A DNA stretch of 64,000 nucleotides from Blasia pusilla (GCA_050084515.1 CM114271.1:25792001-25856000), one strand, 5' to 3'; counted from the stretch's first letter, positions 2,689 through 59,566 are shown. The notes: generated from the letters alone by a model not told the origin. Numbers and translations are program-made.

Positions 2689-3899
2689 CATCTTCCTTTT
2701 TTAATTCAGACTAGGATTCTTTTCATCATTGCAAGGTCATGTATAGACAATGTACATCAGTATCTGCAATGTAGGGGGATAGGGATTGTGAAGCAGTCAA
2801 CTGTGGAGCAGATCTGCAGGTAAAGGCTGGTCACTTGTGCAATTCTGCGGAGCATCGTATGCACTCGATTTTAGTTGCCTTGACCACCAATGTACTGGTT
2901 CTTGATGGAGCTTTGGAAAATAAAGCTGACCTTCATCACTCATGCCCTGGGACAAGCTTGCATTCATGGCAAGAGTTGCAGTTTGTTCACACAATATTTG
3001 AAGACTTGTGAAGCAGCTTAACAGAATGGAACCAAACAGGTGGTGATCTTCAAGAAATACTGTCACTGTCAAGGTAAACTAAGAAAACTGGAGGTAAGGA
3101 AACCCTGAGACTACCAGAAACTTTGATATCATCCAACAAGTCTAGTAAAGACACGGCAAGGGAAGCAAAGAGGAGCAACAACTGGCTGTGCCCACATTCA
3201 ATTACTATGGAAAATTTGACATGGTGATAAAGTTCAGGCCTACATCCTCTAATTTGAGATGCCCAATTACGATGCTGGGGTAGACATGCATCCTGTGAGA
3301 GTCTAGATGTTGAGATAAGGGACAACTCTGCTCATCACCAAGACAAGTCATTTTATGATTGACATCAACCTCACTAGTGCTCAAGCATAACCTCATGGTA
3401 CTTTGGCTTGGCACAACTTTTGTTCCCTCTCTTCTCATGTTGGGGACATATCTTTCCTTTTTGGCTTTTCGGGATTCATAATGTCCCCTTTGATGTTGGA
3501 TTTCAGATGAGCATCCCTCACTTCTAGGATTGGCCAAATGTGGCCATCTTGAGTTGCATTGGTCCACACGAAGGGCGTTGGTGCAGATCGTACGTATGTG
3601 CACCCTCTAGCCCTTGTATGTTGAGAGGACATTCAATTACTCGGCCAAGAACCCAAAAATCCACATCTTGAGAAAATGCCATATCCACATTGGGACTAGA
3701 TTTCCTTTGATAAGAAATATACTTTTTTCAGCTAAACATACATGGGGTCATATTTTTTATTCAGATTTCAACAATTTTTTTAGAATGTAAATTGAAAAAC
3801 TTTGAAATCTAACAAAGAAAAGTTGTTATGCGTTATTATTTTAGTGCCCAAAAGAGCTTCTTGCCACTAGAATGCATCATTCCATGATATAGTTTTCCA

Positions 3900-11811: not shown

Positions 11812-12950
11812 TTAAAGGAAGGTTTGGAAGACGGGTGCATGGATAAAGCTTTCTGTGAGCACTAGAGATAGAAATCCTATCATGGCGAGTCGTCCGTTCC
11901 AGCGCTCGGCTTTGGCCGTGAAAGGCCCGAAGCTTCGAGCATCCGTAGACTCCCCATTCAGCATCGGGACAATTGACGCGTACGCGATCAAGGGAACGAG
12001 CGCGATGTACCACACCAGCCCCGTTCCCTGTGTGTACAGTTGATCGAATACCGTCAGCCCGCTCACCTTCTCTGCTACCGCCGCCCATACTACGCCGAGC
12101 ATCGCCTGCAACAAAGCGTATTGAATATCGGTGAAATTATGTTAAGAAACGTCTATGCCGAGCATCGCCTGCAACAAAGCGTATTGAATATCGGTGAAAT
12201 TATGTTAAGAAACGTCTATGCCGAGCATCGCCTGCAACAAAGCGTGTTGAACATCGGTGAAATTATGTTAAGAAACGTCTATCGCCTGCAACATAGCATG
12301 TTGGACATCTGTAAAATTATGTTAAGAAACGTCTATGCCGAGCATCGCCTGCAACATAGCATGTTGAACATTGGTAAAATTATGTTAAGAAACGTCTATG
12401 CCGAGCATCGCCTGCGACAAAGCGTATTGAACATCGGTAATTATGTTAAGAGACGTCTATAGTATCCAGCTTAAGCTCGACCAAATAGACTCGGGAAATT
12501 GAGTTTTTCCTGGCAGGAGAATGAGCTAGGGGCCTACAGAATCCTGTCCGGGCAGAGCGGGGAAAAACTCACCAATCGGCCGTTGATGGTCTCCGGTGCT
12601 GCACCGTCAAAAGCAAAAATGCTACCGATACTCTTGTCACCAGTCTCAGGGCGCCTCTCCACTTCGGGACGCGGGTAGAAGGAGCCGGATTTTGGCACAG
12701 CACCAAAGACTGATTTCTTCTCTGACTCATTCGTCTCCTGGTTTTCCAATATCTCCTCCCGGGTGATATCGTTCTTCGTGGCGTTGTCCACGGTCTCTCG
12801 AACACTTTCGCACCGGATGAAGTTCCTTCCGGCTACCATTGGCGTCGAACTCACACCGCCGAAAGCCACAGAGCTGGCCGGGTTCCTGAAGCGCTGGGTT
12901 GAGAATGACAAGCTCGACAAACCTCCCAAAACGACCGAAGAGGAAGCCAT
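11812..12950 (-). CDS. ELIP: Early light-induced protein (ELIP)/LHC-like chlorophyll a/b-binding family protein with transit peptide. Exons 12950-12573 and 12105-11812
   Basis: Two LHC helix motifs FAFDGAAPETINGRL|AMLG and AERWNGRLAMIG; Ser-rich N-terminus; GT donor at 12572-12571, CAG acceptor at 12108-12106. Confidence 0.9.
12094..12460. repeat. Six tandem copies of an ~63-bp unit (one lacking 9 bp) spanning the ELIP intron/exon-2 boundary
   Basis: Unit GCCGAGCATCGCCTGCAACAAAGCGTATTGAATATCGGTGAAATTATGTTAAGAAACGTCTAT starting at about 12094, 12157, 12220, 12283 (short), 12337 and 12400. Confidence 0.95.
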
Positions 12951-13598: not shown

Positions 13599-16329
13599 CC
13601 ACTTTATTAGAAAATAAACCTCAAAAGAGGAAAAAAAGTCAGTCAGGGTCCACAATGCTCAAAATATCAGAATGGTATGAACTTGGTTGAATGATCAACC
13701 ATGACAACGCTCGAACTGCCCATGATTCACGTAAGAATATCTTCAGTTCCCACCGCTCACATGATGCGCAAAAACATCTCAAAAGAGGAGCCAAAAAATG
13801 CATGATGGAATGCGAAAAGAAAATGGCAACTAGCCAACGCAAACACCAACTCAACGAGCTGAATTGAAAGTCTGAAACAAATCTGACAAGAACACGAGTG
13901 TTTGGTCAGACGTGAATGGACGACGAGGCGAGCTACCCCACAACCACCTCTGCACGACATATCAATGCCAAGGCTTGTGGACGTTGTAAGGCCACTGAGA
14001 TGCATTGCCGAAAATAAGACACATGTAAATGACCGAATACTTCCACTGAAAAAGGAATAAATCCATCATTCGTATGTCTCACAACATCACTTAACTCATT
14101 GATTCTTGTTGCAGCTTCGGCCGCCTAACCTTTGGTATGTGCGGCTCAACACACCAAGTCAGAACTTGTTGGATCACCAACCACCAAATCACCTAGTGTC
14201 CGGAATACACCTCGAGACATAGCAAGATCCACTCTCTGACGAGAGGTTGCTTGTGTGGTTGAAGGTAGCACATGGAGTTGCTCTTGCCCAACGGTGTATC
14301 ATGCAGTACGAGCCACTGATGCAACCGCCTCTCTAATGCAATCATGTGTGGCTGTTCGTTCTCCACCATGTGCACATCAGAGAATATGGATACCCTTGGC
14401 ATCAATGGGATCCCCGCATACACAATTAGGCACACCTAATAGAGAAGGATGGGGAAGTCCAAGGCGTAACCGCAAAGCTGTCGAGAATATACTTCAAGAA
14501 AGACGAAATGGAAGAATAAGAGGATTCGCAATAAGGCACGCCCCCGCTCCGATACCTGCACATGAATGCAGACAAGCTCAATGAGCGTCAGAGGATGCCT
14601 CAGAGAGAATGCTAGAAAATTTGATTTGATGTAGATTCTCTGAGATATGCTCTTGAAGTCGATCAAGCCCTTCCATAATCAATTGACTGAAAGGGGGTAG
14701 AATTGCTTGTGTAGCAAGAGGAAGAAGAGCTCGTGCAGATCTCAATTGTTGTTGAAATAACAAGTTCCCCTCTTCTACATGGGCAACATGATCCATCAAG
14801 ATAGGTGTATCGCCTTGGCGAAACCTTGAAGCCATAATCGGTGCGACCAACGCCCAACTCCCCAAAAAGGCTGTGGGAGGAAATTAGACTGTGGAGCAAA
14901 GTCCCACCCCTCCAAAAGAAATAGGTAAGATAGTTTTTTGTGAAGCCAAGACACCATCCTCTCCCTCAAATATATTCGAGCCAAGAAGTTGACCAAAAGT
15001 TGCCAAGATAGAAACGTCAAAAGAGGCCGACCAACATAAGAACCTTGAAGTGGGAGGAGAAGTGCGAAGAAAGTAGGAAGGACGTCGTAGAAAATATTTG
15101 GAGAGAATCCCATAAGCCACTTGGGGATCCCCCAGATGAGGTAAAAAATGAAGCCATTACACGTCTTTCAAAAGGACCTCATCCAAGAACTTTGAGACAT
15201 AGTCGACGAAGTCAATTGGGACCCCAAGAACCCTAATCCCTTCAATGTAGATGGGAAAATCAGGAGTAGGTGGGGTGAATGTTGAGGGTAGGCATGAAGG
15301 AGACCATACTCCACATTTACTAGGCGGGACTTTAAGGTTTAAGAAAGAGAGTTGCTCCACGAAATGGATATAAGCAGGAACCACTTCAGAAGGAGGACCT
15401 GTTGAGTGTCATCAACAATAGAAGGGAAAAGAGAAGATGGAAATGCTTGTGCTCATGCTCGATGGAAACGAGAATGGGCAATGGCAAAGAGTGGGCCACC
15501 CATGGGATCACCTTGATGTGTACCACAAGCCGATTGTAAAATACTATATTCCCCGGAAGTAGCATGATGAGAATAGATAATGGGCGTATCATAGGCAAAG
15601 AAGGAGCAAACAAATGGAATAAGACTCGTAAGTTGTCCTCCTGCACAACGTAACTCCTCAAAGATGGCCGCACGAGAAACTGAATTGAATGCATTAGCCA
15701 CATCGACCTGAATTACTACCCATTCTGGATGAATATCAAAAGTGGAGCAAATCCCATGCACCACATCTTCACAACCTCCAGGAGTTGCCACTCCAAATTC
15801 ATGAGGAAATAAGTTGGCACTAAAGTGAGGACAAAATTGCAAGCATAGGGATTGACTAACCAAGCGGTATAAGACATCTCCAATAGCCAAACGGCGAACA
15901 CCTTAGGGAGGCTTATCCATAGCCAACAAACGACAAGCCCCTAAGAGCATGGAGACAAAGAATGGGAGACGACATGCCGCAATATGTGCACACACCTTAT
16001 ATATAGAGAGAGAGAGACAAAGCCACTTGCTGAATCTAGCGGGATAAAGCAATGGCGGAGATGCTCAAAAAACCATCCTTGATAGACCGCTTGCTGATAA
16101 GCAAGGAGTATGAAGAAAAGCCCTTGTGAAAACCTCCAAGTCAAGCTCCAAGTCAAGGTCCGTTGTAAAGTCTTCCACAAAAGGTGGAGCATCGCCACTT
16201 GAGGGAGGGTGAAGAGCTTCTAAGAGAGCCGCTTTTTCCGCACTTGGAACCTCCGGAGAGAGAGGACCCAACGCTCGAGCTGCACGTGAAAACTCACCAA
16301 TGAGCCCCAAAAGTAGACTTCGTCAAAGG
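13599..16329 (-). mobile_element. Degenerate CRE-clade non-LTR retrotransposon (RT, CCHC knuckle, restriction-like endonuclease), 3' part; ends at an (AT)9 tract
   Basis: Minus-strand motifs GEFSRAARAL, AIGDVLYRLV, HEFGVATPGGCEDVVH, DVANAFNSVSR, QGDPMGGPLFA, LRLRLG..CVCG...H...CAHGGERTATHD, RVDL...GDLVVGDP, FIPFSVEVFG and ISVALQR; AATAAA followed by (AT)n at 13598-13581; many stops and frameshifts. Confidence 0.85.
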
Positions 16330-16817
16330 TGTCATATCTTTTAGGATAGATCGATGAGATCTAGTAGAGCGCCTTTGTGAGTAGTGGAGGACAGGCTCAG
16401 TAGGTCGAGGATGACCTGTTGAAGCTCATTTGGAGCCATATTGAGCAACTTACTATTTTAGGTAACTACCATTTTGAGTATATGGTCGACTTTCTTTTTT
16501 TGGTAAGTGGCCTTTGACCTCCTACATCGGGTCAAGAGCTTAGGAGGTGACTTGGGAGAATATGTTACCATGGAGAGAGCTTGGTAGAAGGGAGCTTGGT
16601 AGAAGGGAGGGGTATACCTCAAGGAGAGAGAGCTTGAGAGCTCATTCTCTCTTTCTTGAACCTCTTGACATGAGGCGGAGGAGCTATGGTCCCTTGCCTT
16701 GTGAGTGTAACCCAAGCCTCTCATCAGGAAAGTGGGTCTGGTTTGACATGAGAGAGAGTACACATCTTTGAGAGCTATGGTGTGAGATGGTGTAGAGAGA
16801 GATTGGATCTTACTTTA
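16330..16817 (+). repeat. Terminal repeat block A1 (copy A2 at 25968-26476)
   Basis: TGTCATATCTTTTAGGATAGATCG...GATTGGATCTTACTTTA is highly similar to 25968-26476, apart from an ~40-bp indel, a 15-bp duplication and scattered substitutions. Confidence 0.95.
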
Positions 16818-18357
16818 CAAAGAGAGAATGAGAGAATGAGAGAGCTTCATGGGGAAGCTCGTCGGTCACTCGCTGTTTTTGCAGGTTGGGGACTGTGTTC
16901 CCTGTTCAGCGGCTCATAGGAGTGCTCACCAGAGCAAGGGCTGCTTGGACTGTTCTTTGCATTTGCCGATTTTTGTGTGGAAGAGTGGCGCACGGAAGCG
17001 CTGCCCAATTTCTGATAGGGATTGATTATGGGGGCGGGTTGCCCCATGCCGATGCTCTCGGGAGCACCATGTAGCTTGATGACTTGTATTTTTACAGGTT
17101 TTATATTTTGGTTGGGAGAAATCAGCGCGGAAGCGCTGCCAAATTTTGTGTAGGAGAAAGAGACATTGGGTTTTACGACAGTCCCTTTCAGTTTTTACTT
17201 TTGACGCTCTTGTAGATCGTGAAGCTATGCAGGTTGTGCAATAAACAATGCGCAATTTGGAGTTGCGAGTAAAAAGTTATGGTCAATCTTTCAAAACTGC
17301 CATTGCTAAGCAATTTTTAGAGTTAAATTGTTCAAACCCTAAACCAGCCGCCACGCCGGCGACGACTCTCGCCATCACCGGTCAATGGTCAACCGTCACT
17401 GTCAACCATCAACGGTCCACCGGCCACCGTCGGCCGTTGCTGTTGCCCAGCGTTGCTCAAAGCCGCATTCAGCCGTTGTCCACCCTTTGGTTGCCATTGC
17501 CGCCATTACGGAGTGGAGGGTCTTCCACGACGTTCGTTGATTCTCTGACTTGCGTCGCCACCACGTACTTTGTTTTGGCCGCCACAGTCATCAAAGTTTC
17601 GTTGTCAACTAGTGATGGCAGATGACTTACGGTTATGGTGTTTGAGTTTTGATTTCATGCTCCTATGTTGTGATTGGTAGCCGCTCGATGACGATCGAGT
17701 ACCGTGTCGTGACGCCCGTAGCCGTAATGCGCCGCCGATTGCCGCTCGTGGCCGCACCATACCGTCTCGATCGCAGAGTCCCACCGTCATTGTGGAAAAG
17801 AGTGTGGGTTTATTGTTGATTGAGGAGGGTATGCCGCGGAGTGCCGCATCCCACCATCGAGGGCCGTGCCGTTTGTAACCGTTCCGTGCCGCCTGCAACG
17901 CCGCACCGTTCCGCTGGAACCGCACTATCTATCGAGGAGTTTTGAGCAGCGTCTGTACGAGAGGAGTACGACTTGCTGATTGGAGGAGTTGTCTCCACGA
18001 CCGAGTTGGGGTTGAGATTTGTAGTTTCTGAGGAGCGACATTGACATGTGTTCAGGTTACCCATTTTGGTGCTTTACCCTACACGCGTGAGGGATTCTGG
18101 GATTTGGGTAGTTTATTTGGGGATATTGGGTTGTATGGATGCTGAGAGCATCATTTATGTATGTGGTTTACGGGACAAAGACCTGTGTGGGATGTCATGA
18201 GTTTAGGGTAGGTTGTCGATGAGATGATAGTGTGGTCGATTTGCCGCACCACGCCGCTTGTTGCCGCATGTTACACGTCTCGAGGAGGAAGAGTGTAGAT
18301 CGAGTGCTGCATGTTTGGGATGAGTGATTGAGCAATTACTCACAAGGTTGAGAGTGA

Positions 18358-19759
18358 TTGTGTGAGAGGGGCATTAGGGCCATCGCGGCATCTTTTCAGG
18401 ATTTTGAGAGGCGAGGTAGTGGACCTGAGAGTAGCTCTGGAGGGTTTACCCAAAGTGGTGCGAGGTTTCAAGGGTTTCTGCGTGAGAGACCACCTCGATC
18501 TCCTTCTGTGTCGTCTTCAGATGAGGGGGAGCGTATAGAAGAGTTTGTGAGCACATCGTCACACATTGTGAGTGGTCCTACCAGTCGTGCGTACGAGATG
18601 GACGATCGGAGTAGAGGACCGCGTAGGTTTTCAGGTGCAGTAGGCACGATTGAGTTGCATGATTTCATAGCAGAGTTTAGGAGTTGGTGCGACTCCGAGC
18701 GGGCTAGGAACTCTAGAGAGTTCCACATGTTTACACCATGGAACGGTATATTCCAGCATTTAGAAGGGGCGCCCATAGACGATTACCATGAGTTCTCTCA
18801 AAGATATGCACTTGAGATCGAGGCGTGGAGGCACTACTATGACCCCCATTATGTGCCATGGACAGAATTGTTCCCAGATGAGGAGGAGGAGTCAGGAGAG
18901 GCTATTTCCTCTTCCACTTGTGACGTTTTAGGAGAGGTCACTCGCACGGGAGCAGTTGCACCGTCTAGTCGGGTTCGTCCCAGGTTCAACCTTGTGGTTG
19001 AGTTCTTTGCTGAGTTGAGGACGAGCTACCAAGGGGTATGGACGGAGAAGTTGCGGAGCATCCACCACTTCCAGAGACTCCCGGGTGAGAGTTTTCATGA
19101 GGCTTACACTTGCTTGCGCTGATTGATCAACGTCACTCAGGGGTGATAGAGGCTCAAGCTATCCAGTTATGGTACGCGATGCTGGACCGGACCCTGCGGA
19201 CACGTATGCGGGAGGGGGTGCTTCTATGAACACCTCCCCTACGTTGAGAGATGTTTTTAGGACCGCCGAGAACATTGAGCGCAACATGGCGGAGGAGAGC
19301 GTAGCCACCATGGGTTCTGGGCGAGAGCTGTCACGATTGCCTGCACTACCTGTGCAGCAACGTGGACTCCGAGATAGGTCGACTGTGGCACCACGAGCTG
19401 AGGGAGGATACCGGGGGGGCGTGTCACAAAGACTTGCGCCTTCATATGCGGCTCAACAACGGCTGCCTACTATTACTTGTTGGTCATGTGGTGGAGCCCA
19501 TCATCAGCGCGATTGCACTTGTCAGGATCATGGACGTGTGCCTCAACATGGAGGAGGAGATGGTGCTGCACCAGGAGGTTATCGGTATGACTATTGTCAG
19601 AGGTATGGTCATACACGCGCCAAGTGTTTCAGTTTACATTCTCAGTTACGTCCGGACGGAGGGCCACACAGGGCACTAGAGCGAGTAGCTAGTCCGGGTG
19701 GGCCTAGAGATTGTGTACCAGGTGGTCCTGTTGGGGGACAAGGAGCTGGAGTTGCCTGA
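18358..19759 (+). pseudogene. gag-like ORF of the retroelement, with zinc knuckles
   Basis: FQRLPGESFHEAY retrotransposon-gag-like motif; CWSCGGAHHQRDC (CCHC) and a degenerate second knuckle YCQRYGHTRAKC; interrupted by a stop and a frameshift. Confidence 0.75.
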
Positions 19760-20537
19760 CACGGTGGTGGAGTTTCCCATGGAGGAGGTAGAGTACCACC
19801 ACCTAGACGCGCCTAGAGAGATGCCGGACGTGAGGTTGGGATGGATGCTCAGATACGGCAGCTACAGGAGCAGATTTCTGTTATGGCATCGTTACCTGAT
19901 GCCAGATCCGTGGCATTGACATCATATGGAGCAGCCAGAGATCTGGAGGATCCTGGTTGGATGTGCAGGGTTGCCCAGATGGAGGCATCCGGAGTTGTGA
20001 TGCGTGGAGTAGCCGCAGAGTTGGATCCACAGTGAGGGGAAGCCAGGGAACATACTAGGCTTCCTCATTCTTTCACGTTGTCCGAGGCGATGAGGACCCC
20101 ATCGATGGGTCCTTATCAGAGTTCCTGGAGAGTTGGTGTGCATGCACAGAGGGAATGGGAGAAGCGAGTACAACGACTCCTATTGTTGATGCTCAGGAGG
20201 GGCATGTGTCGAGCACGTTGTTTGGGGCGGCCACCGTTGTGTACCGCACTCCTTTATTTTCTACTTCTGATGTTATGACGTGGGGGGGGGGACTCTCGCC
20301 GAGGCTTTTCGGCTGGCCGTTTCACTATGTGAGCGCGGAGTTGGAGTTCTTGCATCACGTTCAAAGGTGATTGCAAAGGAGGTGATGGACTTGCCCTTGG
20401 AGCGGGTGCTCGGGCCATCCACGTCAGATTCGTGGAAGGCTGCGGCTGCTAAGATGGCGGAGATGCTCGCTAGACCAGCGATACAGCGTGCCATGGCTTC
20501 TCCTGGTATTGTGTTGCTAGATAACTGAGGAGCGGTC

Positions 20538-20873
20538 TTGCAGTTGGTGAGTCCCGGAGGTAGACCTTTTAGTCCGCAGCGCGTCTTGTTGGATTCAAGA
20601 GCACAACCCCTGATGTTGGGGAAAGCGTTATTCAGAGGATTTGGCTTGACGAGAGCCGATGTGGAGCGTTGTCCATTACAGATACAGAAATCCTTGGGTG
20701 GAGCGAGTACCACACAGTATATCACCCAACAGGAGGTCATGGTGAGGATTCGCCCGGAACATCCTACAGATGAGTCCGTGGTGCGAGCCAAGGCGATAGT
20801 GATTGATGCAGAGTCCTACGATGTCTTGGTTGGTGGAGCAGAGTTATACCCGATGGGGTTTTCCCTAGATTAG
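20538..20873 (+). pseudogene. Retroviral-type aspartic protease domain (degenerate)
   Basis: VLLDSRAQPLMLG (DSGA mutated) and downstream YDVLVGG. Confidence 0.7.
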
Positions 20874-21299
20874 TGGGAGTAATCAACGTCCTACACACCA
20901 TGATGGCAGTCATGTGATGGGTGCCTTAGCTCATTACCTGTTCGATTCACAGGTGCAGTGATCGAGCGATGGCCATGAGAGGTGGTGACCTTAGCAGCAT
21001 TTAGCAGTGCCTTCACTTGGCCTAGTGATTTGATTGAGGGACATGTCCATGCAGAGGATACTCATATTCCTGACATTTCTATGGAGAGGAGTGTTATGGT
21101 ACCCGCATCATTCCGTGGAGGAGAGGTGCCGTTCTGGGGCTCGATTTAGGAGCTTTGATGATTGGCAGATGAGCATGTGCAGGCCGCGTGGAGCGAGGCA
21201 TTTGCACCGGAGCATGAGGGGTCTGAGGAACCCGAGGTAGCATGGAGTGCTACGATGACACCCTTGGATACCACACTTATTTTGTGGTGTACCCTTGAG

Positions 21300-22250
21300 G
21301 AGGGTATTCGAGTGTTAGATCTCTTTGGAGGGATTAGCACCGGGTTAGCTGTTGTTTTGCAGGCCGGGGTACGAGTACAATAGTACCTGTATGTGGAGAG
21401 TCATGATGTTGCGAGGCGCGTCTCACTACAACATGTGGCGTAGTTATGCCTACATTTTCCCGACTTATTTTCTACGTCCACGGTACAAGAGTACAAGAGT
21501 TCCCTACCAAGGGATATTTTTTTGATGGGGGCGTAGGACTTAGAGCAGGTAGGGATCATTGATTTGGTCATTGCCGGTTGGCCATGTCAGGGCCAATTGA
21601 GTGTTGGACGAGGCAGCGGGCTGGCTGACACTCGGTCTAGGTTGTTTTGGGAGATGTTGAGGTTCTTACGGCAGTTGCAGGAGCACCGGTCTCGTTCTCC
21701 AACCTACAATTTGGAGAATGTGCCGATCTTAGGAGACTCCAGGTCACAAGTGGTGACAAGTGCTCATCAGGTGCGTGCCGAGATCGGCCCAACAGTGTTC
21801 TTGGATGCGGCGAGTGTAGGTTCTAGAGCCCATCGCATGCGTCTATGGTGGACCAACTTGGTGCCCTGTGCAATATTACGGAGGGCGTATGCAAGAGTGG
21901 AGCGCCCCTCCTATTTGTTAGTGGATTCCATTCTGAATCCAGGTCGTCGATCACACGCAGCGAGGTACGATGATCGACCACCGTTGACTGTGGTCAATCG
22001 GGTAGGCAGGCCACGGGCAACCTTGCCCACGTTTGTGAGTTTTCTTGCTTGCTATGCATACAAGGAGGCCGGTCCTGACTTGGTTTGGGATGAGCATGTT
22101 CAGCGGTTGGTGGAGCCCAATGCCGACGAGAAAGAGCGAGCGATAGGATTTCCCACAGGAGTGACGGCAGTACCCTCAGTGTCAGAGGTATCACGACGCC
22201 ATATCTTGGGTCCCGAAGTGCTTGACGTGGATCCTCAGCTTGGGAGTGGC
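21300..22250 (+). pseudogene. C5-cytosine DNA methyltransferase domain (DNMT3-like) inside pol
   Basis: One frame carries motif I VLDLFGGI, IV DLVIAGWPCQG, VI LENV, VIII AHRMRLWWTNL, IX EPNADEKERAIGFPTGVT and X RRHILG; TAG stops at 21381, 21441 and 21534. Confidence 0.92.
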
Positions 22251-22659
22251 TGAGCAACGTCATATGAGATTGCAACAGATCACATCGGTTGCGTTGGTGA
22301 GCCCCATGCCTACCAAGATGGTGGAGGTAGTGGCTGGAGGCGAGACCCGAGAAGATCCACACACTAGGGGAGATCGGGAGAGACACCCTTGGACTTCTTG
22401 GGATGTTTTGAAGGTACGCCAGGAGATGATAGCCATAACATCGAGCGTGGTTCCGGACACTGCATGTGGAGGAGATCAAAGTTTGCACTTGGTTGCAGGA
22501 GAGCGGTCGAGTGTCGTTGTTGGAGATGGGGTTGCACCATAGCAACCACCGATATCCGCGCTGGAGAGTCCTACCGAAGTCACGATGGAGACTTGGGAGC
22601 CGGATATGGGCCTTAAGTTGACAGGAGGAGAGCGGCGCCGAATACATCAGTTCCTCAGG

Positions 22660-24010
22660 AGTTATAGGAGCTGTTTTGCGTTTAGCATGGAGGATTTGGG
22701 TACGCTGGAGGGACCGCGGATCCGCATTGAGTTGTCGAGTAATACGCCAATCTTCCGATGACCCTACAAGTACAGTGATATGGAGAGGGCTTTGATTCAG
22801 AGTAGGAGCCAGGACTTGGTTGGAGCAAGACTAGTGAAGATGTTGCATGCGGAGTATGCATCTGCCACTGTCATGCCCGCCAAGAAGGATGTGCATGGCA
22901 ATTGGACGGATGGGCGGATGTGTGGGGATTACCCACCTATCAATCGGCAGACAAAGTCTGATAGGTATGCCATGCCCACCCGTGGGGAGATGTTTGATGC
23001 GATTGGTCACGCAAAGGTTTTCAATTCATTGGATTTGCAAGCTGGATACCATCAGCTGCCTATCAGATTGGAGGACATGTAGAAGATGGCATTTTGGGGC
23101 ATCGATCCTCATGGGAAGGATTTTTGTATCAGTGGCGGTTTTTACCATTTGGATTAAAGAACGCCCCAACTGAGTTTCAGAGGGTCATGGATAGGATCTT
23201 GGCTGGTCTGGATTTTGCTAGGTGTTATATTGATGACATCGTAGTCTTTAGCGCCACGATTGAGGAGCATGAGCGACATCTAGAGGAGGTGTTTCGACTA
23301 ATTGCAATTACATGAGCTGAAGCTACATCCAAGCAAGTGCAAGTTCTTCTACGACGAGATTGAGTACTTGGGTCATACGATATACCCATGGGGCCTTGGT
23401 GTTTAGCAGACGAAGGTAGAGGCTATCTCACGCATTCCACGCCCTACAAATGTGAGCCGTGTTCGCGCATTAATGGGATTGGCGAACTTCTATCGGCGGT
23501 TTGTCAAGGGATTCAGTTTGATTGCAAAGCCGCTGACCTTGCTGACCAAGTTGGATCACGAGTGACACTGGGGGATGAGCAGGAGCGAGCATTTCAATTG
23601 CTCAAGGACAGGTTGACATCTGCGCCCATCTTGAGGAGACCGATTAAGGGGTGTCCTTTCCAGTTGCACACATATTGGAGCATGTTGGGGCTTGGAGCGG
23701 TGCTCACCCAGCATGATGATCAGGGTAGAGAGTTTGTGGTGGCTTACGCTAGCCGCTCGAACAACCCTAGAGGCAAAGTAAAACTCGTATGAGGATGAGT
23801 GCTTTGCTGCAGTGTGGGTTGTTGCGCATTTCAAGTGTTACTTATTCGGCAATCCCTTTACCATCATCACTCATCATCAACCACTAAAGTGGTTGATGGA
23901 GTCCGACAAGCTTACAACGAAGCTTGCGAGATGGGCTCTGTTGTTGCAGGAGTATGATTTTCAGGTGGTACATAGACCTGGGACGCTCAACCAAGATGCA
24001 GATGGGTTCA
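22660..24010 (+). pseudogene. Reverse transcriptase and RNase H (Gypsy-type)
   Basis: RMCGDYPPIN, LDLQAGYHQ, LPFGLKNAPTEFQRVMD, YIDDIVVFS (YIDD at 23226-23237), LGAVLTQ, VVAYASRS, KLARWALLLQEYDF and HRPGTLNQDADGFS. Confidence 0.95.
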
Positions 24011-24399
24011 GTTGTAACCCATGCCCGAGTTCGCAAGATGCGACTGGAGCTCGATGGCATGGAGAGAGTGATGAGGAGTCAGTGCCAGGATGGCACACGT
24101 CAGCCTATTTAGGCATGTTGGCTATGGAGAGCCAGAGTGTGGAGACTTTGATGGCGAGGTCTAGTGGAGAGTCCTTGGATCCCGAGGCCTTTGAGGAGAT
24201 CATAGGTGGCCGAGATATTCATGATGATGGAGTAGTCTTGGAGTACTTTCGTACGGGTAGCGTTGCGAGCACTGTGGGTGCTAGAGAGCGGGATCGGATC
24301 CTACAGCGGGCCAGACGGTTCCTTTGGGAGGGGACACATGTTTTGAGGGTTTGGGTAGGTAGGGTACGCGTAGTTCCGCATCCTTTGCAGAGAGCACGA

Positions 24400-25651
24400 C
24401 TAGTGCAACATGCCCACGAGGAGTTGGGTCACTTTGGGGTGAAGCGGAAGTACAGCTTGCTTCAGATTCAGCATTGGTGGCGAGGCATTATAGACTGACG
24501 ACCAGCAGTTTGTTGCCAAGTGCATGGTGTGTGATCGGGTCTGAGCATCGTTCAATGCTCCGACTCCACACTTGCATCCATTACCTATCATGGGCTTAGG
24601 GTATAGATGGAGTTCGGATTTTTCAGGACCTTTGCCTTTGACGGAGCATCACAGTCGTTATGTGTTGGTGATGATCGAGCACTTCTCGAAGTGGATCGAG
24701 TTGGTTGCATTTCCTGACAAAGCGAGTGAGGGAGTAGCTTATGCCTTCCTTAATAGAGTGCTGAGTCATTATGGCGCACCGGCTCAGGTGTTGACAGACG
24801 GGGTACCGATTTTTGCGGTGAGTTCCATGCCTTGTGTGATCAGGCTGATCGACCACCGCACGACTTCGCGAGATTATCCCGAGGCAGATGGATTAGCGGA
24901 GAGAGTTGTGCAGACGGTGAAGAGGGGTTTACGCAAGTATGGCTTGAAGAGAGATCACCTAGGAGATTGGGACCTCCAGTTGCCATGGTTGGCGATGGGA
25001 TATAGATTCAGCAGGCAGGCATCCTTAGCGTCTTTTTCACCGTACTTGCTACTTTATGGCCGAGAGCTAGATTTACCTGCGGCCATTCATCAAGATGCTG
25101 GTGAGATGCTGGACCTTGATGACCCAGATGTATGGATGCGAGCATGTTATTAGAGGGCTGAGTTGTTTTGGAGAGTGATGCCCATGGCGTTCGAGAACTT
25201 GGCGATTGCGTAGCATCGAGATACGTTGAGGTATGCGAATATTCGGGGTGGTGGTTATCGCCCAACTATCCGGAGGTTTCATCAAGGAGATTATGTCTTC
25301 TTGCAGCAGACGGCACCGACGACATTGGATGTGACTGCAAGGCGCACTATCATGAGAGTGCGTGACGTTTTGCCATCCGGTGTTCTCTTGCTGGAGGGAC
25401 GTGATGATCTGGTATGGAAGGACCATGTGCGTAATTGTGCGCCATGTAACCTTCTTAACATTGATGGTAAAGTAGATCCAAGCTCAACAGTAGTTTCTGC
25501 AGGCTTGCGTTGTATGTTGTGTGGTTCTGCTCGTGATGCGGCCACGATGCTAGTCTGTGATGGATGTTCGAGAGGTTGGCATATGGCATGTCTGACGCCA
25601 CCTCTCACTAGGGTTCCTCGGGGACGATGGATGTGTCCCAGATGTACATAG
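24400..25651 (+). pseudogene. DDE integrase (HHCC + core) with C-terminal PHD finger
   Basis: HAHEELGHFG...CMVC, WSSDFSGP, EHFSKW, VLTDG and GLAERVV; PHD (C4HC3) CMLC...CDGCSRGWHMACLTPPL...WMCPRC at about 25510-25647. Confidence 0.92.
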
Positions 25652-25837
25652 AGGAGATACTAGGTAGGTTTTGATTCCGAATTTTTCTGTGATTTGGATG
25701 ACAAGAAGGTAACTGACGATGGGGCCACATGAGTACCCGGCCTTTCTGCTCTTAGCGTCCTTGAGATGTATGTCATGGTACGTAGGGATAGATGGCTATC
25801 TGGAGTTAGAGGGACCTAACCACCAGCTAGGGGGGCG

Positions 25838-25965
25838 ATTGGAGATAATTTAGTACTTCTTGTCTCGTTGTTTGGATGCCATGAGTTAGCATGGGATCGT
25901 GCGTATTTGTGTGTGTGTTCGGTGATAGCGATGTATGTTGTGTAGCGATGTGTATGGGCATGACA
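25838..25965 (+). repeat. Repeat block B1 (128 bp; copy B2 at 26476-26603)
   Basis: ATTGGAGATA...GTGTATGGGCATGACA closely matches 26476-26603 ATTGGAGATA...GTGTATGCGCACGACA; preceded by AGGGGGGCG. Confidence 0.95.
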
Positions 25966-25967
25966 AC

Positions 25968-26603
25968 TGTCACGTCTTTTAGGATAGATCGGTGAGATCT
26001 AGTAGAGCGCCTTTGTGAGTAGTACAGGCTCAGTAGGTCGAGGATTAAATGCTGAGGCTCTGGGAAACCTGAGAGAGCAGGTTTCTCCATCGTTTCGGCT
26101 CATTTGGAGCCATATTGAGCACCTTACTATTTTAGGTAACTACCATTTTGAGTATATGATCGACTTTATATTTTTGGTAAGTGGCCCTTGACCTCCTACA
26201 TTAGGTCAAGAGCCAAGGAGGTGACTTGGGAGAATAGGTTACCATGGAGAGAGCTTGGGAGAAGGGAGGGGTATACCTCAAGGAGAGAGAGCTTGAGAGC
26301 TCATTCTCTCTTTGTTGAACCTCTTGGCATGAGGGGGCGGAGCTATGGTCCCTTGCCTTGTGAATGTAACCCAAGCCTCTCATTAGAAGAGTGGGTTTGG
26401 TTTGACATGAGAGAGAGTGCACATCTTTGAGAGCTATGGTGTGAGATGGTGTAGAGAGAGATTGGATCTTACTTTATTGGAGATATTTTATAACTTCTTG
26501 TCTCGTTGTTTGGATGCTATGAGTTAGCATGGGATCGTGCGTGTTTGTGTGTGTGTTCGGTGATAGCCATGTATGTTGTGTAGCGATGTGTATGCGCACG
26601 ACA
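25968..26603 (+). repeat. Repeat blocks A2 (25968-26476) and B2 (26476-26603), forming the right end of the element
   Basis: Starts TGTCACGTC, ends CACGACA; A2 abuts B2 directly at CTTACTTTA/TTGGAGATA. Confidence 0.95.
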
Positions 26604-26607
26604 AAGG

Positions 26608-26790
26608 CATTTTTGTATAGAAGGCCTCGCATGATTGGCATGTTGAGTGGGATGAGCCGCAACTAAGGCCTTTGCTCGAAGTACATGCTCATTCTGAAGA
26701 TTCTCCCAATCCCTAGACATAAAGCGTTGAATACGCGTGGAGGTTTCACGCGAGGTGCCAACATGTGTCAAATAGGAAGCATGTACTTTC
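26608..26790 (-). mobile_element. 5' continuation of the CRE-clade LINE beyond the nested Gypsy insertion
   Basis: RIQRFMSRDWENL...PSIQKCL joins in frame to (*)RSLLLGLIGEFSRAARAL once the insertion and one AAGG copy are removed. Confidence 0.8.
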
Positions 26791-27268
26791 CTTCATAAAT
26801 GTTTCCACATATACAAAGAAAAGATTTTCCACTTATGCTTCTCATATGTTCTTAACCACAAATTTCCAAATTTTTTTGGTATGGTTTATGCAACAACTAT
26901 AAAACTATTCCATGCCACCTCTCTCTTGGAAAAGTTCTTGTACATATTCCCAAAAATAATAATACCAAGGATAAGTCTTCAAGAGAGTCTTTGATAGCCT
27001 CTAATATGTGCATGATTAGGATCTCAAATATTCTCCCTATATCTTGAATTTGTTGTTTGCTAAGTCTATACCTACAACCAACACTCCAAACCTAGCATAT
27101 CTCCATATGTCCCCAAAAGCTTGTAAGGAGTATAAGTTCATTTAGGGAAAGTTCTCATAGGCATGGCACTTCAAGCAATGGGCCATTACATTTCTATTCG
27201 TCTCCTTCCAATTTAGGTGGATTTTTTTTTAAAAGGCCATTGTGGAGACAAAAATGGAAGTTGTATCC

Positions 27269-27338
27269 ACTTCCTCTTAGGCACAAACTTTTCCATGTCA
27301 ACACTAAAACTTGGAAAAGTTTGTGCCTAAGAAGAAGT
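27269..27338. repeat. 27-bp inverted repeat (1 mismatch) with 16-nt loop
   Basis: ACTTCCTCTTAGGCACAAACTTTTCCA (27269-27295) versus TGGAAAAGTTTGTGCCTAAGAAGAAGT (27312-27338). Confidence 0.85.
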
Positions 27339-29711
27339 AACACATCAACTTTGGTAGGATCCTACAAAAGTTCATGTTTATTGAACTAAGGGCAAGCTCA
27401 ATGAATCTCCCCATGATTGGTTGTAGAAGTTTCATAATTAGGTAGCGTATTTTTGTAGATATTCTTCATTACGTTGCTTAAGCCAATGAAAATCATCACA
27501 TATTTTCTCCAAGCTTTTGTGATCTTAAATTAGCCTGTAAACACATCCTACAATTCTTTCTAAGTTGTCGAATTTTTGGGTTAGAACCTTACCTGGGAGT
27601 ACAACTTCCCTCCCATCAAGTGCTTAAATAGTGACTTGCGTGACGCGACTAGTGGCTCATTTATACTATTAAGAGAGGATGGGGTTAGAGAAACCCTCCT
27701 CCGACGTCAACACATGTCCTTTCAAACCTCTTCTGCTATTGAGACGTGTCAGATTTAAGGAGTAGTTAAATTAAGAGGATCAATTTTCCCCTCACATGGG
27801 CAACATACTAGTTTCTTATATGTGAGACTTGTTGCATTCTTGAAAGTTGTAAGTAAGTGGTGTAATATAATTGGTATGTTCAAAATAAAAAGCATCTCAC
27901 TAAAAATAATTTTCACTCCTCCATTTCTAGTCTTGAGAAGGCTCAAGTAATTCTTTGTGGTCATTCCTCTAAAATTCATGCAAGTTCTCTTTGTCTCCTC
28001 CAAATCTTACATTCCCCATAATATAAAAAAGCATTTTCAAAATTAAAAGTATTATTATTATTTCTTCGTATTATACAAGTCATGAATATAATGATTATTA
28101 TAAATACAAATCCATAAAATAATTTTCAGAATCCGGCGGTGGTGTGAATGAGTCCGAGTGCGGAAACCGAAGAAAAGCTCAGCACTCGACGCTGATTTTG
28201 CAGCCCACCGTTGTTAGTGGACTTGCCGGTAGCCCGGCACCGCACAGGTGGAGTGCGACGCTCCTTGGGAAACAGCGATGGTACCTCGGGACGCGACTCA
28301 GTGATAGTTACGGTGCCGCTGACGAATTCATAACAGTTGAAGCGCCTGCGCTCCGTCCCGTGCGAATGGTGTGGTGGTGAGTATGTTGGAGACTATTTCA
28401 GAGTAAACCCTAGAATCACACTTCGGAGCTAGGATTTGCACTTTCTTAATTTCTCACGGTGTGCGTACACATACGGTACAAGATTGGCACTGCCATGCCG
28501 ATTCGGTCTGCTACTGTCCTCCGCACGTGACATATCTGATCGTATCTTGTATCTTTCGACTGGATCCGAGCTTGCATTCCGAAGAGGCCTCGCTCTCAAA
28601 TTTTGTGCGTGGATGTTCACGACTTTTTGGCTGCATCTGCACATGTGACGACCTAGAGAGTCCGAACAGAGCAAGATTTGGATGTGATGGAATCGACCCT
28701 GAGTGGGGCTCAAAAACGAAGATGCACTTCGATAAAAACGAGTGATGGAAAACCCATCGGAAGTACAAAAGAGGGGGACTCAATGAGTCAAAACCTGAAA
28801 GCCACAACAGGACCAGAAAAGGAAGAAGAGGGCATCCCCCTACCGACGAAACTCACACCAGAAACAATATCAGCAACAACAAGAGAACTATGACTACTAC
28901 CTTTGGTGCGGTGAGCGTGGACTCTAAACCTCGTCCCCGGCCCGTTAGTTAGTTGTCAGACTCGCATAGGGGAAACGCGCTACGTGTGGTGTATGTATTT
29001 GACTGGGATGCGTTTCAGAGGCAGTTGGCAGCTCACGGGGATATACTGGTTGATTGCTATACACACCTACATGACAGCTATTTGTGGAGATTGGCTTTAG
29101 ATTTCAGAGGACATCAACTGACTAGATTGACGTCCGACTGTGGCCAGACGCTTGAAACAGCTTTTCCAATACTAATAATTGGTAGGTTTAGGCGAACTTC
29201 TGGCGATGGCGTTGTAGTCCTAGTAGACAGTGGGAGTAAGTCGAACATTCACACCTCTGACGAAGAGATATGATTCGTTACAGATACGACTCATCGCCAG
29301 TCAAATGAGGTCTCTGAAAGTCAGCGGAGAAGTTTCAAGCAAGTCCTTCTCTGTAAATTTGCATTGTTCATCGCTGTCTCGTCTACCTGCTCCCGATTAT
29401 TCCGAAATCACAAGACAAATCCAAAAGCTGACGAAAGTTGTGGATAGTAAGATAAATGAAGAAACTTATTCCATCACTTGTATGGTAATCTCGCTTCTTA
29501 CGGATTTTTGATATGGAATTTAGAAATTTCCAATTTGGGTGGGTCTACAGGTTCCTTTGGTCGTCACTTCTTTTCAACAGTGGACAGACACAGGCACTAT
29601 CTACACGACGTTGTATCAAACGGGCACATTCTCCCATGTACGAATCAGAAATGTCTCATCTCAGAGAATTGAAAGCCAGAGTCGACTCGCTACCTAATCG
29701 GCTCTTAGCGT

Positions 29712-34381: not shown

Positions 34382-34741
34382 CATCCACCGTTGCTATTCT
34401 AGCTTTGAAAGACCGTTTAATTATAGGGCACCATTCAAACATTTGCTTTTATAAGGTAAGACTAACACGACGACTCTCTAAGCTAATCCCTCCCCACCTA
34501 CCTAAGCCCTTTTTTATACATATTTTATATTTCTCACGGTTCCTTCACGGGCTTGAGTTCAACCATCAACTAATTGTTGCTTTTATAAGGGACCTCCGAC
34601 ACGGCGGCCGCCTCACCCAATTCACGTCGGAAGTTCCAAACCCCAACTACCTAAACCCTTCCCCTCATAGAGCACTTGAGTTCCGAACCGACGGCCGTCA
34701 ACGTCATCCGGTGAGTTGCATTCGAGCATTGCGTCCCGAAG

Positions 34742-34980
34742 CAACTCTTCCCGAAGCAAGGTTCCGCGTCTTTCCGTCGGAATGGCAGTACCCACTCTTC
34801 CCGAAGCCAGGTTCCGCGTCTGTCCGTCGGAACGGCAGTGCCAACTCTTCCCGAAGCCAGGTTCGGCGTCTGTCCGTCGGAACGGCAGTGCCAACTCTTC
34901 CCGAAGCAAGGTTCCGCGTCTGTCCGTCGGAACGGCAGTGCCAACTCTGCCCGAAGCAAAGTCCCGCGTCCGTCCGTCCG
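34742..34980. repeat. GC-rich minisatellite, ~4.7 copies of a 50-bp unit
   Basis: CAACTCTTCCCGAAGCCAGGTTCCGCGTCTGTCCGTCGGAACGGCAGTGC starting at 34742, 34792, 34842, 34892 and 34942. Confidence 0.92.
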
Positions 34981-35999
34981 TGCGTTGGCCCTAACGTGCC
35001 CCCCGCCGCATCTGGTATTCGTATGCCCACGAACCAATCATCGTTTGAGGGTTTCCAAGAAGATACGGTACAGGGTTTCTCCCGCTTCCGGTCCGCCGGG
35101 CCCACATCCGCATTTATGGCTCCAGCCGGCTGCCTCTCCTGCGTCGGATTGTCCTTGGGAGAGAAAGCTTGGTAGGGTACGTTCTCTAACGAGCGACGCT
35201 ACTCCACTAAAGACACACGCACACTCGCGGCAGTGCAATCGGCTAAAAGGATCCTTTAGGGTCATAAGTGAGGAAGATGTCATGAATGATCCGGCTTTTA
35301 TACGGGTATTCCCTCGGGGGTATTCTAGTGAGAATTAATTTGGTCGTAATAATTTGGGGTATTCTAGTGAGAATGAATTTGGTCGATAAGCTTTTAATTT
35401 TTAAGAAATTGTGGAAATGAAGAGAATTCGGTGTGCGTTTAGTACGGGTCTATTATTGATATGTCAATTCATTATTACGAGTGTATATGTAGGTTTAAAT
35501 TATTAACTTTCAATTTTATTTTAAAATTATGATATATTTTCTAATTAATTATAGAATTATTTATTGATTGAGAAATCAAACAATCCTACTGGTTAAAATA
35601 GGATGGATATCCATAGGAGTTTGAAAAATGAATGGACATTCTCCAACAATGAGATAGATTTAACCCCTCCACATTGGCAATATCATATTTGAACGTGTTT
35701 GGGATTTAAGGGTTATTGTTCCTTTTTTTCCATGTCTTAGGATTTGAAAAATCTTTACTTTGTTTAGGTAGGGTTTTCAAAAATGATTGTCCAATCTCTT
35801 ATTTGATCCAAGGCTGGAAATTCTTGTTCAAAGCAATGTCCGCATAGAATCGGGATTCATTGTTGAGCTAGCCCAATGAAAATGTGAAACTCCAATCCTA
35901 GATACCAAGCTCCAGCAAAAATTCCAAAGGAAAATATTAGGTTTTGCGGAGAATGAGTTTGAGAAATTTTTCGTTTGCCTACTCTTCTAGAACGTTAAT

Positions 36000-51697: not shown

Positions 51698-51735
<38 letters not shown>

Positions 51736-51738
<3 letters not shown>

Positions 51739-51959
51739 GGATCCCAATCAGGTAAAGTAGATTGTGTGGTGAAGAGTTTCTTGGTTGACCCTTGGAAGCT
51801 CCGCACAAACACGTTGTTTGGTCAGCACTCACACTATATGAGAGTGTCTCCCTCCTCTCATATGGTACCTTCTTCACTTGCTTCTCTCTCTACACCCATC
51901 CCAGTGCGCGGGGTCTATGGTCGCAAGGCTACGACAGGCACAACTTAATGAGTACAGTT
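51736..51959 (+). mobile_element. 5'-truncated 3'-UTR-only copy of the RTE-X-like LINE, inserted in (CT)n
   Basis: Matches 54384-54625 apart from a small internal deletion; flanked by (CT)n on both sides. Confidence 0.88.
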
Positions 51960-51977
51960 TCTCTCTCTCTCTCTCTT

Positions 51978-52096
51978 TGATGCGATCATACCAGGGTTAC
52001 TACACCAGATCCCATTAGAACTCTGCAGTTAAGCGCCCTTGGGCCGGAATAGTACTGGGATGGGTGACCTCTCGGGAAGTCCCGGTGCTGCATCCA
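51978..52096 (+). rRNA. Full-length 5S rRNA-derived sequence (head of a SINE3-like element; probably not a canonical rDNA unit)
   Basis: GATGCGATCATACCAG...AGTTAAGCGCCCTTGGG (box A)...AGTACTGGGATGGGTGACC (IE/box C)...CCGGTGCTGCATCCA, 119 nt; no oligo-T terminator directly downstream. Confidence 0.9.
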
Positions 52097-52181
52097 AGCA
52101 AGCCTTTGTCTCAAGCACCGTCCAACCAGGGCGCGGGGTCTATGGTCGCAAGGCTACGATAGGCACTACTTAATGAGTACA

Positions 52182-52209
<28 letters not shown>
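51978..52209 (+). mobile_element. 5S rRNA-derived SINE (SINE3-like): 5S head + ~74-nt LINE-derived tail + (CT)n
   Basis: Tail 52108-52181 GTCTCAAGCACC...GGTCGCAAGGCTACGATAGGCACTACTTAATGAGTACA matches the LINE 3' end at 54552-54625. Confidence 0.8.
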
Positions 52210-52212
<3 letters not shown>

Positions 52213-52291
52213 GATGGAAGTGCAATAATTGAGCAAGGCTAGGGACAAAAATGACGTAAAGGCCTTGCTCTCTCTCTCTCTCTCTCTCTCT

Positions 52292-54624: not shown

Positions 54625-54696
<72 letters not shown>
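52292..54696 (+). mobile_element. 5'-truncated RTE-X-like LINE (RT, C-terminal Zn knuckle, 3' UTR, (CT)n tail)
   Basis: NLFKKG...NYRGITLLSVVGKL, AGFR, DHIF, FLDLKKA*DTVWR, GVAQGCPLSPILFNIF, MFVDD, YTYLGI, IRPSLEYGAAVW and CALCDDGDETSSH; clade call from motif style only. Confidence 0.85.
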
Positions 54697-59295: not shown

Positions 59296-59566
59296 CCTAA
59301 TGAGAGGTGGCGTCAGACATGCCATATGCCATTCTCTCGAACATCCATCACAAACTAACATAGTGGCTGTACTATGCGCAAAACCATACAACATACATGG
59401 CAAGTGAATAGGAACTAGCGCCAAGCTCAGATCAAAAGTAATGTCAGTGTTTGGAAGGTGATATTATGCACATGATCCTTCCAAACCATACCATCGCATC
59501 CCTCCAATAAAAGAATATCAGATGATAAAACATCATGTACTTTCAAGATAGTGCAAGACCAAACAT
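59296..59566 (-). mobile_element. Fragment (integrase C-terminus + PHD) of a second member of the DNMT/PHD Gypsy family
   Basis: Minus strand KVHDVLSSDILLLEGCDGMVWKDHVHN...TMLVCDGCSREWHMACLTPPL closely matches 25350-25610. Confidence 0.85.

Follow-up and report, generated by a model that had tools for sequence, protein, structure and literature searches.

Split direct repeats in an abundant Ty3/Gypsy-type retroelement family of Blasia pusilla and a possible integration route through joined cDNA ends

Positions 16330-26603 of a 64,000-nucleotide stretch of Blasia pusilla DNA (GCA_050084515.1 CM114271.1:25792001-25856000; the whole 64-kb stretch is referred to below as the window) are occupied by a retroelement in which two blocks of directly repeated sequence, A and B, are arranged in the order A1-internal-B1-AC-A2-B2. 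The element was judged to be an aged and degenerate member of a highly abundant family of the Ty3/Gypsy type in which the integrase sites do not coincide with the ends of the reverse-transcribed repeat, and in which integration would proceed from complementary DNA (cDNA) with joined outer ends by the steps given below; we hold this reading to be probable, with a rough probability of 0.65. Direct observation covers the layout, the termini and the target-site duplications, where the purine tract and the priming site lie and how well they are conserved, and the composition of the joints between A and B.

Block A1 (16330-16817, 488 nt), delimited by its match to A2, begins with the left terminus TGTCA directly after a target-site duplication AAGG (16326-16329), and its content would correspond to the 3' part of U3 followed by R-U5. 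At the other end, block B1 (25839-25965) ends in TGACA and would represent the start of U3 of the reverse-transcribed repeat. It is followed by the letters AC, by block A2 (25968-26476), recognized by its match to A1, and, across a joint at 26476-26477, by block B2 (26477-26603), which carries the right terminus CGACA (26599-26603) and adjoins the second AAGG (26604-26607). The junction TGACA-AC-TGTCA, which had been pointed out in an earlier note on this DNA, was read at 25961-25972 and places the two end sites of the integrase, right and left, head to head across a spacer of 2 nt. The blocks and the A2/B2 joint lie on the plus strand, while no strand applies to the junction and the duplications. 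An identical, complete long terminal repeat (LTR) is not present at both ends, the left end consisting of A only and the right end of B-NN-A-B, in which NN stands for the spacer.

The layout and repeat coordinates given in the earlier note were borne out by BLASTN. A1 (16330-16817) and A2 (25968-26476) match with 83% identity over 529 columns (E 3.7e-171); the alignment contains three indels of 5, 41 and 15 nt, and its ungapped blocks are 92-95% identical. For B1 and B2 (25838-25966 against 26476-26604) the identity is 94% (E 2e-53). The divergence of the A pair equals that of the B pair, both being about 94% identical, which fits both pairs having been identical at insertion. No other A- or B-like sequence was found elsewhere in the window. 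The insertion boundaries and the 4-bp duplication are fixed by reads of the empty site: the insertion lies in an element that is repeated as well, and 201 raw DNA reads show the uninterrupted form of this host, joining 16325 to 26604 with four shared letters. The ends TGTCA and CGACA and the AAGG duplication named in the note were thereby confirmed. Its further statement that the frame of the host, taken for a CRE element, is restored could not be confirmed, as no open reading frame (ORF) of at least 80 aa crosses the junction when the flanks are read together.

Two contig sets, a raw Hi-C DNA run (about 1% of it) and a raw RNA run were compared with positions 15300-27600 at 85% likeness. Raw DNA depth per orientation was about 1400-3500 inside the element versus about 1.5 in the unique right flank, and the family is repeated about a thousand-fold, as a rough figure. 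From the A start (at 25968), 2245 reads extend upstream into diverse sequence (agreement 0.33), and from the B end 6293 reads (4229 + 2064) run on into equally diverse sequence (agreement 0.33); these positions are the termini of many insertions. In 279 raw DNA reads the B end is joined to the A start via two letters, which were GC in 81, AC in 71, GT in 68 and AT in 37. A canonical joint, i.e. the B end followed by the internal start or the purine tract followed by the A start, does not occur among the 15 best-supported of 1225 joints. Differences between family copies are dominated by C>T (1153 places) and G>A (1241 places), compared with 69-342 for the others (X21), and this excess fits decay by deamination of methylated cytosines.

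Alignment of the cytosine DNA methyltransferase encoded by the element with its relatives led to 61 related loci from metagenome contigs. The 31 longest were compared with themselves, and all 61 were searched with four pieces of locus L038, namely A, B, and 200 nt from either end of the internal part. At least one of these pieces was held by 27 of the 61 loci, the other 34 being short and consisting of coding sequence only. A is directly followed by the internal start in 16 loci, which represent 13 distinct insertions after three pairs of same or homologous loci were merged, and in 12 distinct insertions a complete A start lies beside unrelated flank. B was found ahead of A, or between A and the internal part, in none of these 12 distinct 5' ends. 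At the 3' side, 11 loci have B1 after the purine tract; B1 continues into NN-A2 in eight of them, into flank in two, and coincides with the end of the locus in one. The spacers of the eight B1-NN-A2 loci are GC (three), AC (two), AT (two) and TC (one), and A2 runs into B2 in seven of the eight, as well as in a rearranged copy (L045/L046).

All five loci in which both ends are present carry 4-bp duplications (TCTC, AAGG, CATA, CACA and TGTG), so that the check proposed in the note, whether independent insertions share the layout together with such duplications, had a positive outcome. With the window copy included, inverted termini of the type TG..CA, in the form TGTCA...(C/T)GACA, were found with a 4-bp duplication in six of six complete copies. 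The duplication AAGG is common to the window copy and the unrelated copy L038 (L038 1675-1678); six duplications are too few for calling a target preference. Block B measures 113-129 nt and block A 339-509 nt, B always being the shorter. Beyond the termini, A and B of the metagenome loci cannot be aligned to those of the window copy, and as their order is nevertheless the same, the layout is common to two diverged lineages.

An A-internal-B structure was considered as a primary product of integration and was rejected for L024, although not for L004. The flanks of L024 (13483-15482) and L041 (8172-9766) are 95% alike over about 1.6 kb and mark the same ancestral insertion. As the homologous L041 keeps B1-AT-A2-B2, the single B of L024 is a later B1 x B2 deletion. 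The pair illustrates that A2 can be lost by recombination between the short direct repeats B1 and B2.

These data support the layout as a family trait, not a rearrangement. A one-off rearrangement or an assembly artefact of a canonical element with the LTR A-B at both ends could have been suspected, given that the window holds a single copy which is old and degenerate. However, the same order recurs in eight distinct 3' ends and 13 distinct 5' ends of independent contigs, the B-NN-A junction is found in hundreds of raw reads, and two exact deletions would have been needed in the window copy, which leaves this explanation a next to negligible probability. The earlier note had named a majority of canonical copies as the finding that would reduce the layout to a one-off rearrangement, and the canonical order was found in none of the 61 loci.

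The positions of the primers define which repeat is made by reverse transcription. The polypurine tract CTAGGGGGGCGA (25827-25838, plus strand), the probable plus-strand primer, lies directly before B1, as the note had observed, and the same tract precedes B1 in the window copy and in 11 of 11 loci holding that junction, though B itself differs between the lineages. The candidate priming site of the note, located after A1, turned out to be a 14-nt self-primer complement: the primer-binding site (16819-16832, plus strand) begins 1 nt past the A1 end and is matched not to a tRNA but, as a reverse complement without mismatch, to the stretch CTCATTCTCTCTTT within A1 (16641-16654, plus strand), which would form the 5' end of the transcript and thus the start of R. 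This corresponds to self-priming of the Tf1 type. L038, L039 and L047 have a different 16-nt site at offset 0, which pairs with positions 164-179 of their own A. A different site is thus paired with the own A in each lineage, i.e. the pairing covaries; most of the more decayed loci show one to five mismatches in it. None of 5000 shuffles of A reached 14 nt or 16 nt. For plant elements, self-priming has been defined by a complement of at least 10 nt that starts 0-5 nt after the 5' repeat (PMC6317226), and such a complement is present in both lineages. A TATA-like box (16613-16616, plus strand), which could serve as core promoter, is found about 25 nt upstream of the self-primer stretch, and the related loci carry GGGGGTATAAAG at a similar distance (about 25 nt) ahead of theirs.

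Based on these primer positions, transcription would start inside A, U5 would end at the end of A, and U3 would start at the start of B. A priming site beside the 5' repeat and a purine tract beside the 3' repeat are thus both present, but what they delimit is B-NN-A, which is permuted with respect to the integrated ends. Their positions indicate that reverse transcription builds the repeat B-NN-A, in agreement with what the note had deduced. A mirror model, in which the reverse-transcribed repeat is A-B and the palindrome is the fresh joint, was rejected, as the purine tract stands before B and the priming site after A in all loci.

The family is transcribed according to the RNA run (X22), which had zero depth in the unique flank, and from the orientation of the library the transcription appears to be on the sense strand. 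RNA depth rises from about 10-30 in the 5' part to about 120-160 in the 3' part and A2; the reads were counted in bins of 411 nt, a resolution too coarse for the transcript start or end. Fifty-three RNA reads of this run match through the end of the purine tract (25838) and then read GTTGTGGTACAC, which is the B start of the metagenome lineage and not that of the window copy. A second sub-family with the same boundary between purine tract and B is therefore transcribed in this organism.

The joint between A2 and B2 connects, in both lineages, the base before the priming site with the base after the purine tract; it is exactly the U5 end joined to the U3 start of the reverse-transcribed repeat. 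Eight distinct A2/B2 joints were available in the loci. Four are identical and exact, two show substitutions only, and two contain remnants: in L033, CGAG from the end of the purine tract stands after 17 extra nt, and in L045/L046, 9 nt of the priming site are followed by 5 filler nt. Such primer remnants are expected if the joint was made afresh from finished cDNA ends, and not if B2 was copied from RNA. It is also conceivable that B2 is added by the reverse transcriptase. Synthesis of the plus strand would then proceed to the U5 end, jump to the U3 start on that cDNA or on a second one, and continue through B as far as the palindrome, after which integrase would trim both sides at internal palindromes. 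This would yield the observed polarity, since only a plus-strand switch extends the right end, and it would agree with most A2/B2 joints being exact. However, the 5-nt filler and the 17-nt insertion suit end joining better, and a switch would find no homology at the joint to direct it, so that we regard this as very unlikely.

The junction B1-NN-A2 forms a perfect 16-nt palindrome in L038 (CATGACA-GC-TGTCATG). GC is the commonest spacer in both the reads and the loci, AC of the window copy being a variant, and the spacers AC, GT and AT may have arisen by transitions, to which both CHG sites of CAGCTG would be prone, in line with the excess of C>T and G>A among family copies. Nicks after each CA of the palindrome would leave recessed CA-3' ends with 2-nt 5' overhangs, as in normal 3' processing by integrase.

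All coding pieces of the window copy, which lie on the plus strand, are broken by stops and frameshifts. Translations of 18358-19759 gave broken gag-like ORF pieces with one zinc-knuckle-like motif, for which no Pfam family was found at cut-off; a Marchantia relative (P0005) bears the UniRef name 'CCHC-type domain...'. An aspartic-protease-like (PR) piece (20529-20873) reads LLDSRAQ where the alignment of relatives has LLDSGAQ, and in relative P0015 Asp_protease_2 was matched below cut-off (E 1.6e-4). The C5 cytosine DNA methyltransferase (DNMT) piece (21537-22253) shows PCQ and ENV motifs and matches PF00145 (E 2e-7, 31.2 bits, cut-off 22). It is followed by a reverse transcriptase (RT) in two overlapping frames, and thus frameshifted (22762-23315, PF00078, E 1.3e-15), an RNase H of the Ty3/Gypsy type (23364-23960, PF17919 and PF17917, E 1.5e-16 each), an integrase (24388-25153) broken between 24498 and 24545, and a C-terminal ORF piece (25214-25651) with a PHD finger at its end (PF00628, E 2.2e-12). 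The integrase consists of a zinc-binding H2C2 piece (PF17921, E 2e-5, 25.1 bits, cut-off 25.5) and a DDE core (PF00665 rve, E 6e-7, 30.1 bits, cut-off 32.6). A chromodomain was not matched in the Pfam scan of the window copy. The pieces follow the Ty3/Gypsy pol order PR-RT-RNase H-DDE integrase, with Pfam matches in that order on the plus strand, and the C5-DNMT is situated within this Gypsy-type pol, between the PR and RT pieces. The same order, PR-DNMT-RT-RNase H, is found in relatives P0007 and P0015. Methyltransferase relatives are 57-65% identical and come from liverworts and a Sphagnum moss, the nearest named proteins being those of Calypogeia fissa (65%), Marchantia (about 60%) and Sphagnum (60%); some of these join the methylase with RT and RNase H.

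Domain content also bears on whether the element could be of the DIRS/Ngaro/PAT kind and use a tyrosine recombinase, the gene for which was lost or escaped detection. The A1-B1A2-B2 layout is the hallmark of PAT and Ngaro elements, and SymbioDIRS-Dnmt3 is described as A-coding-B-A-B in PMC5890265. Against this, a scan of 20 ORFs from both strands of the element, and of six relatives, gave no tyrosine recombinase family, pieces of both the integrase zinc domain and the DDE core are present, and all six complete copies have 4-bp duplications and TG..CA inverted termini. Such duplications and termini fit DDE integration and not integration by a recombinase. This explanation is consequently highly improbable, and the assignment to Gypsy-type elements with a DDE integrase made in the earlier note stands.

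For the integration of this Gypsy-type family we infer the following route, each step of which is deduced from the features above. Transcription would begin within A, about 25 nt past the TATA box. The 5' end of the RNA would fold back onto the site after A1 and prime the minus strand, as in Tf1, and the plus strand would be primed by the purine tract before B1, resulting in a cDNA with B-NN-A at both ends. The outer ends of this cDNA, i.e. the U5 end and the U3 start, would then be joined to give A/B. Within the repeat that adjoins the priming site, integrase would open the palindrome TGACA-NN-TGTCA by nicking after each CA, and the permuted molecule would be inserted with a 4-bp duplication, giving A-internal-B-NN-A-B. 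We see about an even chance that a whole lineage of LTR elements with DDE integrase has in this way shifted the end sites of its integrase away from the ends of the cDNA and into a palindrome within U3, with end joining as an obligatory, on-pathway step and the U5/U3 joint kept as a scar in every insertion, and has thereby converged, with an integrase of the retroviral type, on the layout of DIRS/PAT elements and on the circle-junction transposition of bacteria.

That the joined form is a closed 2-LTR circle, as the earlier note proposed, seems possible at somewhat less than even odds. The part of that proposal which concerns the joint stood, in that A2/B2 behaves as a joint of cDNA ends; the closed circle itself fared less well. 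Random cutting of a symmetric 2-LTR circle predicts that about half of the insertions have the other permutation (A/B-NN-A-internal-B), which was seen in none of the 12 distinct 5' ends. A circle would contain two identical palindromes, and an asymmetry of some kind is therefore needed. One idea is that, after the second strand transfer, the 5' repeat would become double-stranded well ahead of its 3' counterpart; another is that the short B places the 5' palindrome nearer to a DNA end; a third is that the methylase of the element marks one copy of the palindrome. Speculatively, the DNMT could in this manner help to pick the palindrome to be cut, the core CAGCTG holding two CHG sites.

The same relocated sites might also be used with no closed circle being formed. 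Integrase would then commit to the palindrome of the 5' repeat on linear cDNA or on an intermediate of reverse transcription, and the outer ends would be joined by the host before or after strand transfer. This would account for the strict polarity, with the other permutation missing from the 12 distinct 5' ends, given that on such molecules the 5' repeat would be the first to become double-stranded. B is always the short block (113-129 nt versus 339-509 nt for A), which would put this palindrome nearer to a DNA end as well, and the joints with filler and primer remnants resemble products of end joining. However, integrases of retroviruses as a rule act on sites that are no more than a few nucleotides away from a DNA end, and the data do not separate this route from a circle with one favoured palindrome. 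We consider it rather unlikely.

Several observations weigh against the route through joined cDNA ends as a whole, besides the missing permutation. No extrachromosomal form was observed in the data examined, and none of the copies examined has intact reading frames. Both integrase matches of the window copy are slightly under the curated Pfam cut-offs. The metagenome loci may stem from few genomes, at least four pairs being the same or homologous. Remnants occur in only two of the eight distinct joints, and one of these (L045) belongs to an otherwise rearranged copy. Finally, rarer canonical junctions could be present in the family of the window copy itself, beyond the 15 best-supported of the 1225 joints.

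If the route is true, the family offers a natural case of integration that proceeds productively from end-joined cDNA. The joining of cDNA ends, regarded as a dead end in retrovirology, would here be obligatory, and a long-debated side reaction of retroviral integrases would become testable in plants. It would also account for the 'DIRS-like' repeats of Gypsy-DNMT3 elements. On the practical side, LTR finders, LTR-based dating and transposable element classifiers assume identical LTRs at both ends and will mis-delimit or misclassify this family, which in this genome seems to number on the order of a thousand copies or more.

The repeated element that hosts the insertion extends over 14796-16329 (minus strand) and from 26604 to about 26700, with a raw-read depth of about 550-750 per orientation. 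It contains a reverse-transcriptase-like ORF (15453-15902, minus strand) with a match to RVT_1 of 24.6 bits, below the cut-off of 29.6. The sole relative of the Gypsy-type element in the window is a truncated 260-nt piece of its C-terminal (PHD) region at 59296-59554 (minus strand), with 74% DNA and 56-67% protein identity and no repeats around it. At 58346-58504 (plus strand) a weak reverse transcriptase match (36% over 53 aa) represents a fragment of another, unrelated retroelement. Tandem arrays with periods of 63 nt and 50 nt and paired repeats are located at 12038-12501, 34692-34991, 45207-45915 and 51731-54653; they include a 300-nt pair, 99% identical and 409 nt apart, and pairs 2.4-2.6 kb apart that may bound another element.

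Comparison with known systems places the element closest to KnitGypsy-Dnmt3 of the alga Klebsormidium nitens, for which a DIRS repeat structure (A-coding-B-A-B) with Gypsy domain composition is given in the legend of Fig. 4c of de Mendoza et al. 2018 (PMC5890265). Both have a Gypsy-type pol that holds a C5-DNMT domain, and both have repeats in the order A-coding-B-A-B, as far as that account describes them. The split layout, which the earlier note had taken to be novel in DDE Gypsy elements, is thus not itself new in print; the text of PMC5890265, as distinct from its supplements, gives no termini, duplications, primer sites or mechanism for KnitGypsy-Dnmt3, and the same is true of the passing mention of 'streptophytes (Gypsy-DNMT3)' in the accessible part of a 2026 preprint. 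In the full-text literature, subscription journals, Repbase and supplements excepted, no description of this mechanism and no report of the family from liverworts or mosses was found. The present element differs from the algal one in that its nearest named proteins are those of Calypogeia, Marchantia and Sphagnum. Word-based protein searches with its proteins gave only bryophyte names among the matches listed, and a profile search for Klebsormidium kin, confined to proteins of 2409-5000 aa and thus to the wrong length band, gave no match. It can be filed, by layout and domain content as described for the alga, as a bryophyte-type addition to the barely characterised Gypsy-DNMT3 kind.

With DIRS/Ngaro/PAT elements, the tyrosine-recombinase retroelements among which TOC1 is counted, the family shares split direct repeats A1-internal-B1A2-B2 and a B1A2 joint that holds both ends head to head. 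Elements of that kind have a gene for a tyrosine recombinase and leave the target unduplicated, whereas the present family combines a DDE integrase with TG..CA termini and 4-bp duplications. These features, together with the absence of a recombinase among its ORFs, place it outside the DIRS order. With Tf1, sushi and Tcn1 it shares a stretch after the 5' repeat that is complementary to a stretch inside that repeat, as these elements are described in the part of the literature covered; the window copy, by contrast, has a PHD finger at its C-terminus and gave no chromodomain match. Transposition of the IS3/IS911 type goes through a circle junction with a short spacer, and a DDE enzyme there also acts on abutted left and right ends a few bp apart. 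These are, however, bacterial DNA transposons without reverse transcription, and no kinship is claimed.

The cleavage of palindromic LTR-LTR junctions by integrase has been published for foamy virus (PMC1180852) and HIV-1 (PMC1905944). In these systems, according to the parts of the two reports covered, a DDE integrase likewise cuts an internal palindrome composed of both end sites, by which processed ends are produced. In retroviruses the palindrome is the U5/U3 joint and its cleavage a side path; here the palindrome lies inside U3, the integrated copy retains the U5/U3 joint, and this seems to be the principal route.

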